A DNA stretch of 64,000 nt, from NCBI GenBank assembly GCA_951406725.2, contig OX597822.1, positions 68,882,001 to 68,946,000 of the forward strand, given 5' to 3'. Positions within the stretch are counted from its first letter, which is position 1; the number at the start of each line of letters is the position of its first letter. The DNA is from Octopus vulgaris. Its lineage: Eukaryota. Shown piece after piece: positions 7,249 to 62,052 of this stretch. The translations under genes and the position numbers were made by a program. A model generated the notes under the pieces. The model saw nothing but the letters and a program-made list of their open reading frames with translations, was not told where the DNA came from and did no database searches.

Positions 7249-7635
7249 CAGGGCTGGATTAAGACCCATTGAGGCCCTAAGCACCTAAAAGATTCTGGTG
7301 CCCCCATAAAAGATTATGTAATTCAAAATATAAACAATAACAAACCATAAAATAAATTTTTATTTTTGTATACTTCCACTTTATTTATATTTGAAAAGTT
7401 TCCTCCTACTTTTTTGAATTGCAAAGTCTTTGATCAGATCCTCAAAATTAATCTTCAGTAACACATCTGCATCTATACTTAGTAGAGGTAAAGGCATTCC
7501 AAATATTATTTTACCAAGTTTAAAGTGATTTCTTTTGTGCCATAAACCATTTACCATTTCTCTGGTGCCCCCCACCCTCCTTCCTTTGATGCCCTAAGCA
7601 TGTGCTTATTTTACTTAATGGTTAATCCAGATCTG
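7249..7635 (-). mobile_element. hAT-derived MITE (family G)
   Basis: Termini cagggctggattaa / ttaatccagatctg; perfect 8-bp TSD acctgctg (7241-7248, 7636-7643); minus strand LLSIDADVLLKINFEDLIKDFAIQKSRRK resembles a hAT transposase C-terminus. Confidence 0.92.
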
Positions 7636-12523: not shown

Positions 12524-12583
<60 letters not shown>

Positions 12584-12587
<4 letters not shown>

Positions 12588-13148
12588 GTTGTTCAGAAAG
12601 TTTGTGCTGATTTATAGTAGCTTACCTTTCGACTTATTTTAGAACATGGCTGAGTCCATAAAATAGGATTTGACTACACCTCCATTTAGAGCAGAGTTTA
12701 AGCTATCTTTTCATGGAAGAAGATTTATGCTCCTATAACCTGTGTTAATTCTCTAACCCTTTAAAATGGAAGATAAGAAAGTTCCTTTTTGGCATTTGAT
12801 GCTTTGGGAACCAGACAAAAATTGCTGCAGCTCGGCTGGGATGTGTTACCCCACCTTCCATATTCACCAGATATTGCTCCTTTGGATTTACACTTAATCA
12901 GGTCTCTGCAGAATAGTCTTAATGGTAAAAATTTCAATTCCTTGGATGACATAAAAAGAGACCTTGATGAATTCTTTGCCATGAAACCAGCTCAATTCTG
13001 GGAAGAGGGTATTTTCAAGTTAAAGGAAAGATGGAGATGCATTGTGCAACAAAATGCTTCATATTTGGTTGATTAAAATGATTAAAAATGTAATGGCAAG
13101 TATTTATTTACCTTTTTCTTTCCTTTAAAAATTGACATGACAACCCAA
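12584..13148 (+). mobile_element. Internally deleted mariner transposon
   Basis: TA-flanked TIRs ttgggttgt...acaacccaa; MEDKKV start fused to TRQKLLQLGWDVLPHLPYSPDIAPLDLHLIRSLQNSL...WEEGIFKLKERW (YSPDLAPSD-type motif). Confidence 0.95.
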
Positions 13149-16464: not shown

Positions 16465-16872
16465 TTTCTTATCTTTTGTTTCTGTCAACTGTGGCCATGT
16501 TGGGGGCACTGCCTTGAAGAATATTAGTCGAACAAATTGACTCCAGTACTTAATTTTTTTAAAGACTGGTACCTATTTTATCAGACACTTTCGCTGAACT
16601 ACTAAGTTATGGGGACGTAAACACACCAACATTGGTTGCCAAACAGAGACACAAAGACACACACACAAACACACATACACTCACACACACACACACACAG
16701 ATACACATACACAACAGGCTTCTTTCAGCTTCCATCTACCAAATCCACTGACAAGGCATCAAGGCTTTGATTGACCTAAGGCTACAGTAAGACACTTGCC
16801 CAAAGTGCCATGCAGTGAGACTGTACCAAATACCATATGGTTGGGAAGCAAACTTCCTACCACACAGCCATG
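16465..16872 (-). mobile_element. SINE family A, diverged
   Basis: gtggccatgttgggggcactgcc...ctaccaaatccac...gacacttgcccaa...ccacacagccatg. Confidence 0.85.
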
Positions 16873-19141: not shown

Positions 19142-19181
<40 letters not shown>

Positions 19182-19465
19182 CACATACACACACACACAC
19201 ACAAACATGCATACACATGCACATTTTGTCTCTGGAAGAAACTAGCTCTATTCATACCTGGTGTGGGATGGGTTCTGACCCCACTATGTCACCATGATGT
19301 CCCTCTGATTCTCTCTGAGTTGAGGACCTTACCACCACCAATACACGCACACACACGAGAGAGAGAGAGAGAGAGGGAGAGAATGTGTGTGTGTGTGTAT
19401 ATGATTAAATCCACATGTAAGTCTAAGGTAAGAAGTATCAAGACTTACAATACTCACTCTCTTTT

Positions 19466-19504
<39 letters not shown>

Positions 19505-19783
19505 AACTCATACACATGCCCATTTTTGTCTCTGGAAGAAATTAGCTTCATTCAGACTTGGAATGGGATGAGCTCTGATTCCACTTCTCCCCCACCCCCG
19601 TATGTCATCATGGTACTCCTCTGACTCTCCTTGAGTGGGAGGTTTACCATCATCAGTACACACAAACACACACACACACACACGAGAAAGAGAGAAAGAG
19701 AGAGAGAGAGAGTGTGTGTGTGTGTGTATGTGATTAAATCCTCCTGTAAGTCTAAGGGTAAGAAGTAACAAGACTTACAATAC
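19125..19783. repeat. Diverged tandem duplication, two units of ~330 bp
   Basis: ttttgtctctggaagaaa.tagct, tgattaaatcc and ggtaagaagta.caagacttacaatac each occur twice. Confidence 0.88.
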
Positions 19784-21300: not shown

Positions 21301-22259
21301 CAGTGCTGGATTAATCATTCACCAAAACAAGCATGTGCTTAGGGCATCAAGGGAAGAGGTGCACCACAGAAATGGTAAATGGTTTATGACACAAAAGAAA
21401 TCACTTTCAGTTTGCTAAAATATTGAGTTGTCTGGAAAGTTCATGCCGATTTATAGTAGCTTACCTTTCGACTTATTTTAGAACATGATCGAGTCCATAA
21501 AATAGGATTTGACTATACCTCCATTTAGAGTACAGTTTAAGCTGTGTTTTTGTGGAAGAAGGTTTATGTTCCTATATCCTGTGTTAATTCTGTAACCCTT
21601 TAAAATGGAAGATAAGAAAGTTCATTTTTGGCACTTGATGCTTTGGGAACCAGACAAAAATTGCTGCAGCTCGGCTGGGATGTGTTACCCAACCCTCCAT
21701 ATTCACCAGACATTGCTCCTTCGGATTTCCACTTATTCAGGTCTCTGCAGAATAGTCTTAATGGTAAAAATTTCAATTCCTTGAATGACATAAAAAGAGA
21801 CCTTGATGAATTCTTTGTCATGAGAGGGTATTTTCAAGTTAAAGGAAAGATGGAGGTGCATTATGCAACAAAATGGTTCATATTTGGTTGATTAAAAATG
21901 CAATGGCAAGTATTTATTGACCTTTTTCTTTCCTTTAAACATTGGCACAAACTTTCCAGACAACCCGATAATATTCTGAATGCTTTATCTCTACTAGGTA
22001 TAGAAGCAGATATGTTACATAAGTTTAATTTTAAGGATCTGATCAAAGACTTTGCAATTAAAAAAAGTTGGAGAAAACTTTTCAAATATAAAGAGGAAAA
22101 ACATTATTTTCCATCTTACTGTTAGTTTTGTTTTATTTTGAAAAATAAAAATTTATTTTATGGTTTATTATTGTTTATATTTTTAATTACATATAAATGG
22201 GGGGACACACCAAAATCTTTTAAATGTGTAGGCCCTCTATGGGTGTTAATCTGGCCCTG
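21301..22259 (+). mobile_element. hAT MITE family G carrying a mariner insertion
   Basis: Termini cagtgctggattaa / ttaatctggccctg; TSD gcttcaat / gctccaat; ALSLLGIEADMLHKFNFKDLIKDFAIKKSWRK. Confidence 0.9.
21423..21968 (+). mobile_element. Internally deleted mariner, second copy
   Basis: TIRs ttgagttgtctggaaagtt / aactttccagacaacccga, TA TSD; PPYSPDIAPSDFHLFRSLQNSL; same deletion junction as 12584 copy. Confidence 0.95.
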
Positions 22260-23189: not shown

Positions 23190-23620
23190 ATTTCAACGAG
23201 TTAAAGTATGAAATCATTAGAATGTAGAAAATGAAGAGGGCAACTATCATACTTGTAATCGTACGAAGAGATCGAAGGAGATTGTGAATAGGACAGTCTT
23301 AGCAGCATTATAAGTCCCCATGTAAATCAATGCTCTGGACCCTATAGTATTTATCGACAGTAACACATGGATTAGAATTGGGCCTCTTGGCAAATGCGGT
23401 ATGCCCATGTCGTAAGACTGCGTTAGTTGTGAAATGTAACTGATGCAAAGAGTTAGTTTATTGGAACAGCTAAAATATTGCGAAGAGCACTCCATGGCTA
23501 AGATTGACCAAAAAGAATGGAAAAGGCTAAGAGGAGGCTGCTTGGTACTCAAGGCGACCAAGTTATAAGTGCCATTCTGAGGAAAAAAGAAGCAGTGATA
23601 GTAATTATAACAATGATCTC
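23190..23620 (+). mobile_element. Decayed R4/Dong-like (RLE endonuclease) non-LTR retrotransposon 3' end
   Basis: FNELKYEIIRM*KMKRATIILVI and frameshifted QRVSL/GTAKILRRAL resemble the C-terminal LLGTARILR motif also seen at 48383-48818. Confidence 0.6.
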
Positions 23621-33545: not shown

Positions 33546-33904
33546 TAAAATTCTTGCTATACCGTATCAGGCTTTTATCACCAAAACTTAAAATTTGCTC
33601 ACCTGCCTTCAAGGTGAACATCAGTATGGTCGCTCGATCTGCTAGAAATAGCAGCCTAATCTTCCTCATATAGTATATGAGGAAGATTAGTATATAGTAT
33701 ATGAGGAAGATTAGGCTGCTATTTCTAGCAGATCGAGCGACCATACTGATGTTCACCTTGAAGGCAGGTGAGCAAATTTTAAGTTTTGGTGACAAAAGCC
33801 TGATACGGTATAGCAAGAATTTTATCAAATGTGTCATTCCTCTTAAAGACGGTAGGGTATATGACATATACCCTACTCTTTAAGAGGAATGACACATTTG
33901 ATAA
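33546..33904. repeat. Two abutting near-perfect palindromes (127-bp arms and ~40-bp arms)
   Basis: 33546-33672 is the reverse complement of 33698-33824 with 1 mismatch; 33822-33863 pairs with 33865-33904 with a 2-nt bulge. Confidence 0.97.
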
Positions 33905-34319: not shown

Positions 34320-34995
34320 TGTTTGAACCACAGGATAGCTCTGATTGTAATGGATCTGTGAGAAAAGGCGTTTCAGCCATGACCATTTTATCTTATTCTT
34401 TTCTAGAAGTAATGAATTCCTAAGCGAACATTATAAAATAATATAAACTTGTTTTATTATTTTTTCTTGAAGACGGAAATTTCATTTCTTTTCTTTTTGT
34501 CACGAGGATTTGGTTGCTCTTTCTAGCAACTCGAGTGACCAGGTAAAGGCTCTCTTGTTGCCTCGTCTCGTTCCCTTCGTCACCTGTTGTTTAGTCCCGA
34601 GTTGGATGACTGAACAGACATGATTAAAGACGTCCCAACTGTGACCATTCCGTCTTTCTTCCCAGACATAATGGACTCTACGTGTTAATCATAGAATAGA
34701 GGTTTTTCTATCTTGTATATAAAAAAGTTTGGCTACTTTTTCTAGCAGGTCATGCAACCACATACAGGCTCCGTCGTTGGTCTGTCTCAGTAATAATTTT
34801 GTTGTTATTTAGCATCAAATCAACCCTAATGCAGCAAACCTATTATCAAAGACATTCCAGCCTTCAGCAAACCGTCTTTTTAGGGATAATCTAGGACATT
34901 ACGTACAATGGGGGTATGATTTAGGTAGGGGTGATACTTTGGCTGCTATTTTTAGCGTGTCGAGTGACCAGGTAGAGGCTCTTTCATTGGTTCGA
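34320..34995 (+). repeat. Three head-to-tail diverged copies of dispersed repeat J
   Basis: Each ends tttggYtRctWtttYtagc...tcRWgYRaccaSRtaVaggctc...ttg; other copies at ~9955-10145, 35730-35885 and, on the minus strand, 33546-33904 and 54125-54310. Confidence 0.7.
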
Positions 34996-35457
34996 TTGCG
35001 TGATGAGATTTTTTACACATCATTGACTGATTAACGAAGGAGCGGAAGTGAAAATAACTAATTCATATTAGGAAAAGTTGATGCCACATTTGAAAGAAAC
35101 AAACCCAAATTGTTGCTGCATTATATGTATGCATGTGTGTGTGTGATCGGCAGAAGTTAGAGAGTAAGTCAAATGCAGAGTTTCTTGTATTGGCACTTAC
35201 CAAACACAAATTTGGCCAATGTCACTCTGTAACTTCTGCCTATTATTAATGTGTGTGTGTGTGTTATAAAAACATTTCTGGATATTAAAAAAAGGTTTTG
35301 TTAGGGGAGATTTTCAGTTTAAATTTTTCTGTTGTCAAAGAGTCATCGTTTTGTCAATGACTAAGGGAAAATTAACGTAATGTGTGTGTGAGTGTGTTTC
35401 AAAGTAATTTATTTCAGGTACACGATGTATAATAGGTCATTAAATGTAAAACTGTAA

Positions 35458-35497
<40 letters not shown>

Positions 35498-36743
35498 TAC
35501 AAGGGCACTCATTAGGGACTTCCATTGTAAATTGAAACTATAATTGTAGTGAGCAGAGCTGTGACTGTTTTAGCAGCTTTATAGACCGTCAGGTAAGTCA
35601 ATACACTGGGTCCTATGTTATTTATTGACAGCAAACTAGTGTACATAGATCAGAACAGGGACCCTAGACTTGTGAGGTCCCCGAACAACTGTTCAGTGTG
35701 CTCATGCTGTAACACGCACTGATTGAAGGTACTCTATCTGTGACCATGTCATTTGAGCGACATTTAGGAGTGCATAATGTAATGTGTCCTTCCCTTTTAC
35801 GAAGATGATGGTAGGTGTTGTTCTTAGGCTGCTATTTCTAAACAGCTCGAGCAGCGACGTAGGTAAAAGATCCCGCATTGGTTCGATAATTAAGAAATAT
35901 ATTTTGCCTTATGTGGCTGTAATATTTCCTCGTGTATTTTATTTTATATACATCGGTTCTTAATTCTGTAAGACTGACATGCATAGAGATATAGATTTAT
36001 ATTTCTAACACATACGTCCAGAATAATGAATGAACGAAAGTAAAAGGAAATAATTTATGGTGAAAAGATTATCACGTTTTTAATGGGATACATAAAGCTA
36101 ACAATTGTCAGTTATTTATCATAACATTAGAATTAACAGAAAGTCCTCACAAAATGTGTGTGTGAGTATTAGATAGATGTGTGTGTGTTTCAGTTACCAT
36201 TTTGCTAAGGGAGAAAGTGAAATTAACATTAACAAAACAACAAAACATTCAACGACTAGCGATCTTTCGATGTAAATTATGTATTGTAATGCCCATTTTC
36301 TGACAAATATATTCGGTGTCCGATGCTATTTAAAATATTCCTGAAAGTGTTAGGATGAAAAATCGGATACGCCGAAGTTTAAGTTACGAAAGAGGAAATT
36401 TAAAAATGGAAAATAAGTCAGTCGGTTTCTTTATGCGTGCAAAAATATGCATTGTTGAAAAAGTTACTAGAAAACAAAGTCCTGATAATGAGGTGTTGAG
36501 AATCGAATTAAACTATGTCAAAAAAAAAAAAAATATATATATAAAAGGAATTGTCACGGCTGGAACGGTTTCGAAAAAGAAAAAAGATATATATTTTGAA
36601 AAACAGACGTCGTGGCATCCAGTATTTAAGACATTCAATGCTGAAATAGCAGTCAAATCCTCCTTAGAAATAGAAAATTTCTTAAAAAAAAAAAAAAGAA
36701 AAAAAAGTAATTAAGAGGAAAAAATTTATTTTTTATCTAATCG

Positions 36744-36810
36744 CAACCCTAACCCTAACTTTAAACCTTAATCCTAAATCCTCATCCCTAAAACGCCTAA
36801 ACCCTGATCC
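36744..36810. repeat. Degenerate (CCCTAA)n telomere-like tract
   Basis: aaccctaaccctaactttaaaccttaatcctaaatcctcatccctaaaacgcctaaaccctga. Confidence 0.65.
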
Positions 36811-37127: not shown

Positions 37128-37352
37128 TAGTGTTTCTCAACCATTTTTCATCTATGGACCACTTTCGTTCCTATTTTACTCAGATAGACCTTCCTATTAT
37201 ATTTTTATTATTATGTAAAAATATAATTCCGGGTTCCAGGTTCAGTCCCACTGCGTGGCACCTTGGGCAAGTGTCTTCGACTATAGCCTCGGGCCGACCA
37301 AAGCCTTGTAAGTGGATTTGGCAGACGGAAACTGAAAGAAGCCCATCGTATA

Positions 37353-37409
<57 letters not shown>

Positions 37410-37761
37410 ATATGTTTGTGTGTCTGTGTTTGTTCCCCCCAACATTGCTTGACAACCGGTGCTGGTGCGTTTACGTCCCTGTAATCTAGCGGTTCAGCAA
37501 AAGAGACTGATAGAATAAGTACTAGGCTTACAAAGAATAAGTCCTGGGGTCGATTTGCTTGACTAAAAGGCGGTGCTCCAGCATAGCCACAGTCAAATGA
37601 CTGAAACAAGTAAAGGAGAATATATTATTAGGAATTTTATAAAAATAATTATTAAAATATTTAGTGCATTGTAGAAGTATAACAAATTTATTGCAGATAA
37701 ATGTTAACAAAATATTGTATGGAACCCCAAGGGCCACATGAACCCTGGTTGAGAATCACTG
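37128..37761. mobile_element. hAT (Charlie-like) MITE with SINE A inserted at ~37228-37620
   Basis: Termini tagtgtttctcaacc / ggttgagaatcactg; perfect 8-bp TSD ctctacat. Confidence 0.9.
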
Positions 37762-41128: not shown

Positions 41129-41505
41129 GGTGGCACATGGCCTAGTGGTTAGAGCAGTGGACTCGCGGTCGAGAAATCGCGGGTTCAAATCTCAGACCAG
41201 GTGGCACATGGCCTAGTGGTTAGAGCAGTGGACTCGTGGTCGAGGGATCGCGGGTTCAAATCTCAGACCGGGTGGCACATGGCCTAGTGGTTAGAGCAAT
41301 GGACTCGTGGTCGAGGGATCGCGGGTTCGAATCTCAGACCGGATGATATGTGTGTGTATTTATGAGCAAAACATCTAAGCTCCACGCGACTCTAGCCGAA
41401 GGTAATGGCGAACTTCTGCTGACTCTTTCGCCACAACTTTCTCTCACTCTTAATGGTGGTGCATCAGCATGGCCGCAGCTCTTAGCTGAAACTAGAGAAA
41501 AAAAA
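41129..41505 (+). mobile_element. SINE family F with triplicated 71-bp tRNA-like head
   Basis: Units start at 41129, 41200 and 41271; A-box tggcctagtgg, B-box ggttcRaatc; tail cagcatggccgcagctcttagctgaaactag. Confidence 0.9.
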
Positions 41506-43920: not shown

Positions 43921-44697
43921 TCAAGGATTTTAAACAAACATCACAAACATATAAATGTATGCAGTTACACACACACACACATGACTGTGTGTGTATGAGA
44001 AATCCTCCTCCTCCTCCTCACCACCACCACCACCACCACCACCACCACCACCACCACCATCATTGTCATCATCATCATCATCATCATCATCATAACCACC
44101 ACCACCACCACCACCATTCAAGTGAAGCATACAGGTTAAGTGAGGAAATGCTTGTGACCCTGAGATACCTGCTGACAATATGGAAGGGTTTCCAATACTG
44201 TAAAGGATTTAGAAGAGCTTGCAAAAGTTCTGAGTAGCTCCTGCACTCACTGAATGGGGCAAAGCATCTCTGATGTTTATTCCATATATATATAAATCAG
44301 GGACATGCCTTGAATAAAAGAGATCAATAGCAACATTTTCCTTTTGTGGCAAAATATGCACCTAATTCAGTAAAATTATGAAGGTTACTCTGATTACGAT
44401 GCATAAAATGCAAAATATTTTATTTTCTTGTAGATTAGGTAGACATTATTTTTTTGATCCCTGCTTTTCAATCTCAGTATTTAAGCTGTGCATAGTAATA
44501 CTGTACTACACATGCTGTATACATTTCTACAATACCGTTTTCTTTATGTGCTATAAAGGCATAAGTAAATAAATCTGCCTTCGACTCAGTCATTTGCCTG
44601 TGTGTCGCTTATTTTTTGTGTGTTTTACGACATAAAGGTCACTAACTGCCTACCCTGAGTAATTACTGATGGCATGTGCCTGATATATATATATACT

Positions 44698-49112: not shown

Positions 49113-49692
49113 CAGGGCCAGATTAAGACCCATTGAGGCCCTAAGCACTTAAAAGATTTTGGTGCCCCCATTAAAGATTAAGTAATTCAAAATATAAGAT
49201 GGAAAATAATGTTTATTTTTGTATACTTCTACTTTATTTATATCAGAAAATTTTCCTCCTACTTTTTTGAATTGCAAAGTCTTTGATCAGATCCTCAAAA
49301 TTTATCTTCAGTAAAACATCTGCATCTATACTTAGTAGAGATAAAGGCATCCCGAATATTCTTTTCTACACTAGACACAAGGCCCAAAATTGTTGGGGAG
49401 GGGGTCAGTTGATTAGATCGACCTCAGTATGCAACTGGTGCTTAATTTATCGACCCTCAAAAAGATGAAAGGCAAAGTCGACCTTGGCAGAATTTGAACA
49501 CCGAATGTAAAGACAGATGAAATACCGCTAAGCATTTCGCCTGGCGTGCTAACATTTCTGCTAGCTCACTGCCTTAAAGGCATCCTGAATATTATTTTAG
49601 CAAGTTTAAAGTGATTTTTTTTGTGCTATAAACTATTTACCATTTCTGTAGTGCCCCCTCCTTCCCTTGATTTTTTGGTTAATCCAGCACTG
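49113..49692 (-). mobile_element. hAT MITE family G with SINE B' inserted at ~49361-49575
   Basis: Perfect 8-bp TSD tatctggc; inner SINE flanked by aaggcatcccgaatatt / agggcatcctgaatatt. Confidence 0.92.
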
Positions 49693-50835: not shown

Positions 50836-51070
50836 AAGTGGAGGCACATGGCCTAGTGGTTAGAGAAGCGGACCTCGCGGTTGAGGAATCCTGGGTTCGA
50901 ATCTCAGATTGGGCGATGTGTATGTTTATGAGCGAAACGCCTAAGCTCCACACGGCTCCAGTAGAAGTTAATGGCGAACTTCTGCTGATTCTTTTGCAAC
51001 AAATTTCTCTTGCTCTTTTCTCCTGCATCTTGCAGCTCACCTGCGACGGACCAGGAAACAAACAACAACA
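50836..51070 (+). mobile_element. SINE family F (single head), apparently inserted into a minus-strand element H
   Basis: Homologous to 41271-41450; flanked by atatttaa direct repeat. Confidence 0.8.
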
Positions 51071-61221: not shown

Positions 61222-62052
61222 CAGTGGTTCTCAACTTGGGTTCATATGGCCCCTGAAGGTCCACATAAGTTTTTTGGGGTCCATACAAGAAAATAGTAAA
61301 TTGAGGATCCACAACTTTATTTTGAGGGCCCCTGAAAATTTTTGTTTTTATGTGTATATTGGTAGTATTGCAGCTTCACGGCGCAGTTGTCTGAAGGTAT
61401 CGGATTGGTTGCATCAAGCTTGTTTCACTTTTTCAGCAATTTCGATTGTTCGGCCCGAGATCTAATCTTTGTTTTTTCGCTTAGTAGTGCCGAGTGTTGT
61501 GGACATCATGGATTGAAGATTGTGTTTGACTGTTTGCCAGACTTCATCTGAGGAAGCAGATTGAGGGACTTCGAGCCCGTTAAAACCGATTTGTTAATTC
61601 AGGGTTGGCGAAAGCAATGTGGTGGACAACGAAAAACCTGGCTGATGACAGTTAAGGCTGATCTGGAACCCAACCTAGGCCTCCATATATATGGCGTTCA
61701 CCGCTGGAATAAGGAGTGGTTGGAGATCACATGGTTGTTAGCCTCAAATCGCCAGGCCTGGTCGGCGTTTATGAGAGATGCAGCATTGAGAATGAATGAA
61801 GCCAGCTCAACCCACCCCAGGTGAATGCTGTCAAGTTAGTCAGTCAGCAGTATTGCAAGAAACAGCTAGGTTTCTTTCTCTAATATTTTACATAGTTCAA
61901 CCTACAAAAGTTAATGTGTGAAAAACAAAATAGGAATTTTGAAAGAAGTTTTTTTATAAAACTAGTTTTCGAATGTTGAATGACTTTGGGGGTCCACCAG
62001 AATAAAACAGTAATCAAAGGGGTCCATATGTAAAAAATGGTTGAAAAGCCTG
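61222..62052. mobile_element. hAT (Charlie-like) non-autonomous element with retroelement insertion
   Basis: Termini cagtggttctcaac / ggttgaaaagcctg; TSD gtctaaag / atctaaag; repeated ggggtcca subterminal motifs. Confidence 0.85.
61373..61848 (+). mobile_element. Short RTE-like retroelement
   Basis: TSD agtattgca; GWRKQCGGQRKTWLMTVKADLEP...RWNKEW...LASNRQAWSAFMRDA; tail gtcaagttagtcagtcag. Confidence 0.82.

Follow-up and report, generated by a model that had tools for sequence, protein, structure and literature searches.

In the case of Hermes, the transposase nick falls one base into the DNA that flanks the element. On excision, elements of the hAT group (Ac/Hermes/Buster) are described as leaving a footprint in which an 8-bp duplication is accompanied by palindromic insertions, the centre of each being the complement of the base next to the transposon (PMC5873905). 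In the Ac/Ds footprints treated in that source, which come from the maize element in yeast, Candida and Arabidopsis, such palindromes occur together with microhomology at the join, and the longest arms cited are 20 nt for budding yeast, a figure given there at second hand, and 3 nt for Candida. TcBuster, of the Buster branch, is reported to prefer the 8-bp target nnnTAnnn and to form its footprints via hairpin formation and end joining, with insertions of a few bases in the cases given (PMC3499496); for Hermes the target pattern is given as nTnnnnAn (PMC10368747).

A double palindrome in the genome of Octopus vulgaris resembles these footprints in form and departs from them in scale. It occupies positions 33546-33904 of a 64-kb stretch of contig OX597822.1 (64,000 nt, the window in what follows), and to judge from its sequence it is, with a probability that we put at roughly 0.8, the site vacated by a DNA transposon of the hAT type, with palindromic arms of exceptional length on both sides. 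Like the Ac/Ds footprints it has complement-centred palindromes, microhomology at the join and an 8-bp duplication, whereas its palindromic (P-type) arms measure 127 and 42 nt, are present on both sides and lie at a natural animal locus. The mechanism is a known one, and the unusual part is that both arms extend far beyond the 20-nt maximum cited for yeast, being 2-6 times as long as the longest yeast P-arm. Since these lengths fall outside the typical range of about 20 nt, which is not a definition, the locus is to be regarded as a variant hAT footprint. With TcBuster it shares the target form and the route through hairpins and end joining, although here the scar stands without its element, and the assignment of that element, probably to the Buster branch, draws on the site and on neighbouring elements.

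Long inverted repeats derived from hAT hairpins have a precedent in plants. The Antirrhinum Tam3 excision allele niv-525 reportedly contains a long inverted duplication of the flank, of about 200 bp, at a hAT excision site; it is said to be one-sided and to lie in a plant gene promoter, unlike the two-sided octopus scar. In Arabidopsis a 598-bp inverted repeat of flanking DNA beside Ds has been attributed to the hairpin chemistry of Ds and proposed as a source of new repeats, although the repeat as described is one-sided and still attached to the element at a new site, whereas the octopus scar is a two-armed empty site (PMC1978519). In the literature searched, no hAT footprint with long arms on both sides was found for a natural animal genome; coverage of subscription papers was weak, as it was for the classic work on Tam3, on Ascot-1 and on Ac footprints by deep sequencing, and supplements were outside the scope of the search, such that longer arms may be on record.

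Table 1. Positions of the parts of the double palindrome, of the putative target duplication and of short-TIR elements in the window.
Feature	Position	Strand	Description
B'	33546-33672	+	left flank as it was before the event, copied into the long arm; minus-strand repeat J in its inner part
B	33698-33824	+	P-type palindromic arm of 127 nt that repeats B' in inverted form, one substitution apart
A	33822-33863	+	palindromic arm of 42 nt that repeats A' in inverted form, with an additional CG at 33850-33851
A'	33865-33904	+	original right flank, 40 nt, minus-strand piece of repeat J
TTA microhomology	33822-33824	+	joins the two arms, common to B and A
Left hairpin tip G	33673	+	complement of the last base of the putative duplication
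Right hairpin tip A	33864	+	complement of the first base (T) of the putative duplication
24-nt tandem duplication	33667-33714	+	lies across the left tip; units 33667-33690 and 33691-33714, 23/24 identical
Left copy of putative target duplication	33666-33672	+	TCATATA seen; eighth base C only as complement at 33673
Right copy of putative target duplication	33865-33871	+	CATATAC seen; first base T only as complement at 33864
Non-autonomous TIR element	37128-37761	-	perfect 8-bp duplication CTCTACAT, central TA; interrupts another J copy
Second copy of the 37128 TIR family	61222-62052	+	duplication GTCTAAAG/ATCTAAAG, 7/8, central TA
First short-TIR family, three copies	7249-7635, 21301-22259, 49113-49692		ends CAGGGC/CAGTGC...GGATTAA
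Possible further short-TIR element, weak	44298-44682		low-complexity 7/8 duplication

The structure had been described in a sequence-only reading as two flanks that enclose inverted copies of themselves in the order B' B A A', with arms of 127 and 42 nt meeting at a TTA junction, and re-derivation of coordinates and arms returned the same arrangement (Table 1). B' and B are complementary at 126 of 127 positions, with a single substitution at 33577/33793, while A (42 nt) and A' (40 nt) differ by one 2-nt indel, the CG of A being absent from A'. Each palindrome turns on one central base, a G on the left and an A on the right. The proposal that a single event acted at both ends of one break, followed by microhomology joining, also stands, as B and A share the TTA, and so does the proposal that the event was recent: the arms differ by 2 events in 169 nt, or 1.2% (95% interval 0.14-4.3%), a figure that arm-to-arm conversion could have lowered. 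Other claims needed amendment. The allele left when the inner part is removed is contiguous, as had been supposed, only if one copy of CATATA (33667-33672 or 33865-33870) is dropped as well, an overlap of the flanks that had gone unremarked. Identity with repeat J applies to the inner part of the structure, which matches the J copy at 35781-35852 at 74% over 73 nt, and does not extend to the outer 81 nt of B'/B, for which no other match at E<0.1 was found within the 64-kb window. What had been seen as an extra partial copy in the first loop is present and can be defined more closely as the 24-nt tandem duplication spanning the left turning point. This duplication turns a palindrome with a 1-nt centre into an inverted repeat with a 25-nt spacer, and a wider spacer should make the palindrome stabler. 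Four more J fragments, all on the plus strand, lie within 34504-35852 (1.4 kb) and adjoin the minus-strand J copy that hosts the scar.

The net gain at the locus is 198 nt, and folding of its plus strand gives -291.8 kcal/mol (z = -38.8), a stability reached by 0 of 100 shuffled sequences. When the whole 64 kb was scanned for perfect inverted arms of at least 12 nt with loops of up to 40 nt, 276 hits were obtained, six of which passed a low-complexity filter. Three of the six fall inside this structure, two in a TA/CA tract at 47.5 kb and the last is an isolated 12-nt arm, leaving the structure as the sole adjacent double palindrome among them.

The evidence for excision lies at the turning points. 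CATATA closes the original left flank and opens the original right flank. In the right flank it is followed by a C, to which the left tip G is complementary, and in the left flank it is preceded by a T, to which the right tip A is complementary. When the complement of each tip is added to its own flank, TCATATAC results on both sides, each copy of the duplication having seven bases that are seen and one that is read from the hairpin tip. The tip bases carry information from the opposite flank, and the comparison of the two 8-mers is therefore not circular. Among the lengths of 2-11 nt that were tried, the left and right reconstructions are identical only at 8 nt. An enumeration of hairpin models over duplication lengths of 0-12, nick offsets of 0-4 and both opening polarities returned exactly one solution, namely 8 bp, an offset of 1 and opening to a 3' overhang. 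The junctions thus match the hAT excision footprint in the 8-bp duplication, the complement-centred palindromes and the microhomology at the join, and of the two mechanisms offered by the sequence-only reading it is hairpin opening after transposon excision, here of the hAT type specifically, that agrees with them.

How surprising is such a coincidence of overlap and tips? The chance that two unrelated local flanks share an 8-mer is 9e-5, and a generic break with an overlap uniform within +-15 nt and random centre bases would give the overlap together with both tips at 2.4e-3; both figures are post hoc, because the signature was noticed only after the data had been looked at. From base frequencies, the tip match alone would be expected at about 0.23 if either opening polarity is accepted. 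At the scar site the J paralogues of the window are longer than the reconstructed allele by about 3 bases; the paralogues support contiguity and leave the 6-nt overlap without independent fixing. The reconstructed target TCATATAC has TA at positions 4-5 and so fits nnnTAnnn, as do 8.8% of local 8-mers. Against nTnnnnAn it agrees in the A at position 7 and departs at position 2, which is C and not T, the pattern being a preference rather than a rule.

The other mechanism that had been put forward, snap-back or template-switch synthesis of polymerase theta type from both ends of an ordinary break with no transposon involved, has some appeal at the distal join, where the TTA microhomology resembles templated end joining, and at the left tip, where two short slips (TAG, then ATAT) rebuild the 24-nt duplication base for base. 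At the turning points themselves it does poorly: neither tip shows any homology (0 nt), and on the reconstructed allele no fold-back register reproduces the junctions (ends within +-14 nt, stems of 0-7, loops of 0-24). Two untemplated bases, both complementing the next flank base, would be required in addition to the 6-nt overlap, a combination with the chance of 2.4e-3 given above. We consider it quite unlikely. Fold-back inversions in yeast likewise show an inverted duplication of the flank at a break (PMC7467729, PMC6315862), and in the accounts given they start from pre-existing stems of at least 4 bp with a loop, of at least 3 nt in the examples of PMC7467729. The octopus scar, by contrast, has no stem, has single-base centres and carries a target duplication. 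Nor do its centres resemble those of RAG hairpins, which give even palindromes without a central base. The P-nucleotides of V(D)J coding ends share with the scar a flank hairpin made by transesterification and opened off-centre, whereas RAG, as described, cleaves at the boundary of signal and flank, with no 8-bp duplication of the kind found in octopus (PMC6900584). Three further rearrangements were considered and rejected: a staggered-break inversion and a single template switch would each yield the order B' A B A' in place of the B' B A A' that is observed, and a tandem duplication followed by inversion needs both breakpoints at one site and leaves the tips unexplained.

The same tips bear on the possibility of a fold-back artefact of library or assembly. 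Near-perfect inverted repeats are a known source of chimeras and assembly problems, yet an artefact would here require two opposed fold-backs whose tips rebuild one 8-mer, and between arms and templates there are a substitution, an indel and the 24-nt duplication. Moreover, copy A holds a CG that is missing in its template A', and two of seven aligned J paralogues read GGTAGG like A and not AGTAGG like A', which is a weak argument in the same direction. There is, on balance, only a slim chance that the structure is artefactual.

With the excision of a hAT element, the events at the locus could be arranged as follows. The element would have inserted into an old J repeat, duplicating TCATATAC. 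At excision the transposase would have cut a single strand of each flank, one base away from the element, and attack of the resulting 3'-OH on the opposite strand would have closed the flank into a hairpin, with the complement of the element-adjacent base at its tip; the geometry of this step is seen at the locus and its chemistry is known for hATs. Neither hairpin would then have been opened near its tip. The cut would instead have fallen on the strand that is 5'-terminated at an ordinary break, such that 127 and 42 nt of flank were kept as 3' extensions. MRN-Sae2/CtIP is described as nicking the 5'-terminated strand at positions inward of a blocked end, in vivo as far as about 300 nt from it, and as leaving pieces of 41-300 nt when its exonuclease is defective (PMC6315862). 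At both ends of the scar the opened strand is the would-be 5'-terminated one, which fits the strand nicked by this complex, and an internal nick of MRN-CtIP type at a blocked end may account for the polarity; incomplete trimming back toward the tip would leave the 3' ends 127 and 42 nt out.

A variant of this opening step would have the transposase hairpins replicated into long palindromes, with breaks at distances of 127 and 42 bp from the centres and subsequent rejoining. Unopened hairpin ends do give rise to inverted duplications in yeast without the Mre11 nuclease or Sae2 (PMC6315862). In the octopus, however, two separate breaks near the centres would be needed with no other rearrangement, and each tip could have read either base, which on our reasoning gives the observed pair a prior of 1 in 4 and so discriminates weakly; we regard the variant as unlikely. 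Where the hairpins were nicked directly, the two 3' ends would have annealed at the TTA that is seen at the join and primed fill-in across both hairpins, plausibly by polymerase theta. The 24-nt duplication could have come from stuttering at the left tip during this fill-in or from a later break at the centre of the palindrome, and a polymerase-theta-like activity may lie behind both the distal TTA join and the duplication. One substitution and one 2-nt indel would have accumulated since the repair. The 8-bp overlap geometry, the complement tips, the polarity that they imply, the arm lengths and the TTA join are features of the locus itself; that a nick far from the tip and subsequent microhomology joining produced the long arms is what we infer from them.

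As candidates for compatible transposons the window contains six short-TIR elements with 8-bp duplications, three of them 8/8 and three 7/8. A central TA is found in three of the six duplications, and one element sits inside another J copy. Five of the six came from a TIR scan that covered elements up to 6 kb and kept 227 candidates, of which only the six starting with CAG/TAG/CAA/CCG/CAC were inspected; the candidate at 23289-23425 was dropped as weak, with 4 TIR mismatches. The sixth element, at 61222, was found by motif, the motif count being 12 against 6.7 expected, which is not significant by itself, with two exact matches taken further. A stricter TIR scan, in which the terminal 5-mer had to match exactly, was overrun by microsatellites and did not pick up the copies of Buster-like form. 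The family of 37128-37761 and 61222-62052 is one that we take to be Buster/Charlie-like, and that of 7249, 21301 and 49113, with duplications ACCTGCTG, GCTTCAAT/GCTCCAAT and TATCTGGC (8 bp), appears hAT-like without a central-TA preference; the labels hAT and Buster/Charlie are suggested for these elements by the form of TIR and duplication. The copies at 37128-37761 and 61222-62052 are 77% alike at their ends and, given the 1.2% divergence between the arms, are probably older than the scar. Within the 37128-37761 element there is a multicopy insertion of younger age, at about 37232-37618. The window yielded no young hAT copy, and a scan of it for classic short hAT footprints was uninformative, with 1 match (16751-16766) against 1.2 expected by shuffling. 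A Pfam search with 15 long ORFs and 101 non-repeat ORFs gave 0 hits, revealing neither a transposase domain nor a host gene nearby; the 101 belong to a set of 107 non-repeat ORFs of at least 45 aa between 20 and 48 kb, the other 6 of which are among the 15.

These neighbours also bear on whether some other transposase that hairpins the flank and makes an 8-bp duplication, chiefly that of a Mutator-like element (MULE), was responsible. The 8-10-bp duplications of MULEs are compatible with the 8 found here, and Muta1 does hairpin flanking DNA; in the account given, however, more than 90% of Muta1 excisions in yeast are precise, and its hairpin is sized at 43+43 nt with no stated one-base offset (PMC5499845). 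The intact elements of the window, among those of up to 6 kb that were scanned, have short TIRs starting with CAG/TAG and not TIRs of more than 100 bp. A MULE or its like is accordingly a very unlikely source of the scar.

The window as a whole is eukaryotic DNA and, as far as its ORFs were scanned, non-coding; it is AT-rich, rich in microsatellites and 43% multicopy, with short repeats that seem similar to those of octopus genomes. Across the 64 kb there were 0 Rfam matches at the gathering threshold and no tRNA call by ARAGORN. It includes two mariner transposase fossils (12581-13137 and 21420-21947) that are 88% alike, the first of which is a eukaryotic mariner with best mariner transposase hits of 68-70% identity in a homologue search. 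Three tandem tRNA-like units of 71 nt, 95% matches related to 50839-51017, are found at 41129-41342, where neither ARAGORN nor Rfam made a call, and are probably a SINE head. An old tandem duplication of about 310-330 bp, with 77% identity and microsatellites included, lies at 19146-19783, and a short degenerate run of CCCTAA-like units at 36745-36810. In a region with so high a multicopy content, the hairpin shape of the structure might suggest a MITE or foldback element present in many copies, comprising either the inner part or the whole; that the whole is a multicopy MITE had been named by the sequence-only reading itself as a finding that would overturn its account. The outer ends, however, are not inverted repeats (3-6 of 15 matches for three choices of end) and have no flanking duplication, the inner segment copies its own flanks, and the structure, with its outer 81 nt, is single within the window; a MITE is hardly credible.

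The locus is a single non-coding site without shown function, and its interest lies in what it records. Excisions are normally invisible without a comparison genome, whereas the scar preserves in one sequence the place of insertion, the chemistry of the transposase and the route of repair, and it supplies a pattern for searches. It suggests that, in an animal germline, hairpin-capped ends can open far from the tip and in the polarity of a resection nuclease, an outcome that bench assays with short amplicons could under-report. It also indicates that a perfect hairpin of 127 bp can arise in one step; should the locus be transcribed, this would bear on how dsRNA substrates originate. It is doubtful on present evidence that opening at a distance of tens to hundreds of bases from the tip, with rejoining at microhomologies, is common for hAT excision hairpins in the germline of this animal. 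If it were so, excision would regularly give rise to local inverted repeats that are long and near-perfect, and hence to substrates for hairpin RNA, editing and small RNAs. Its signature would be readable from one assembly, as two palindromes with single-base centres whose tips and 6-nt overlap spell an 8-bp target, and a genome-wide scan would then date and count the excisions of elements that have since vanished.
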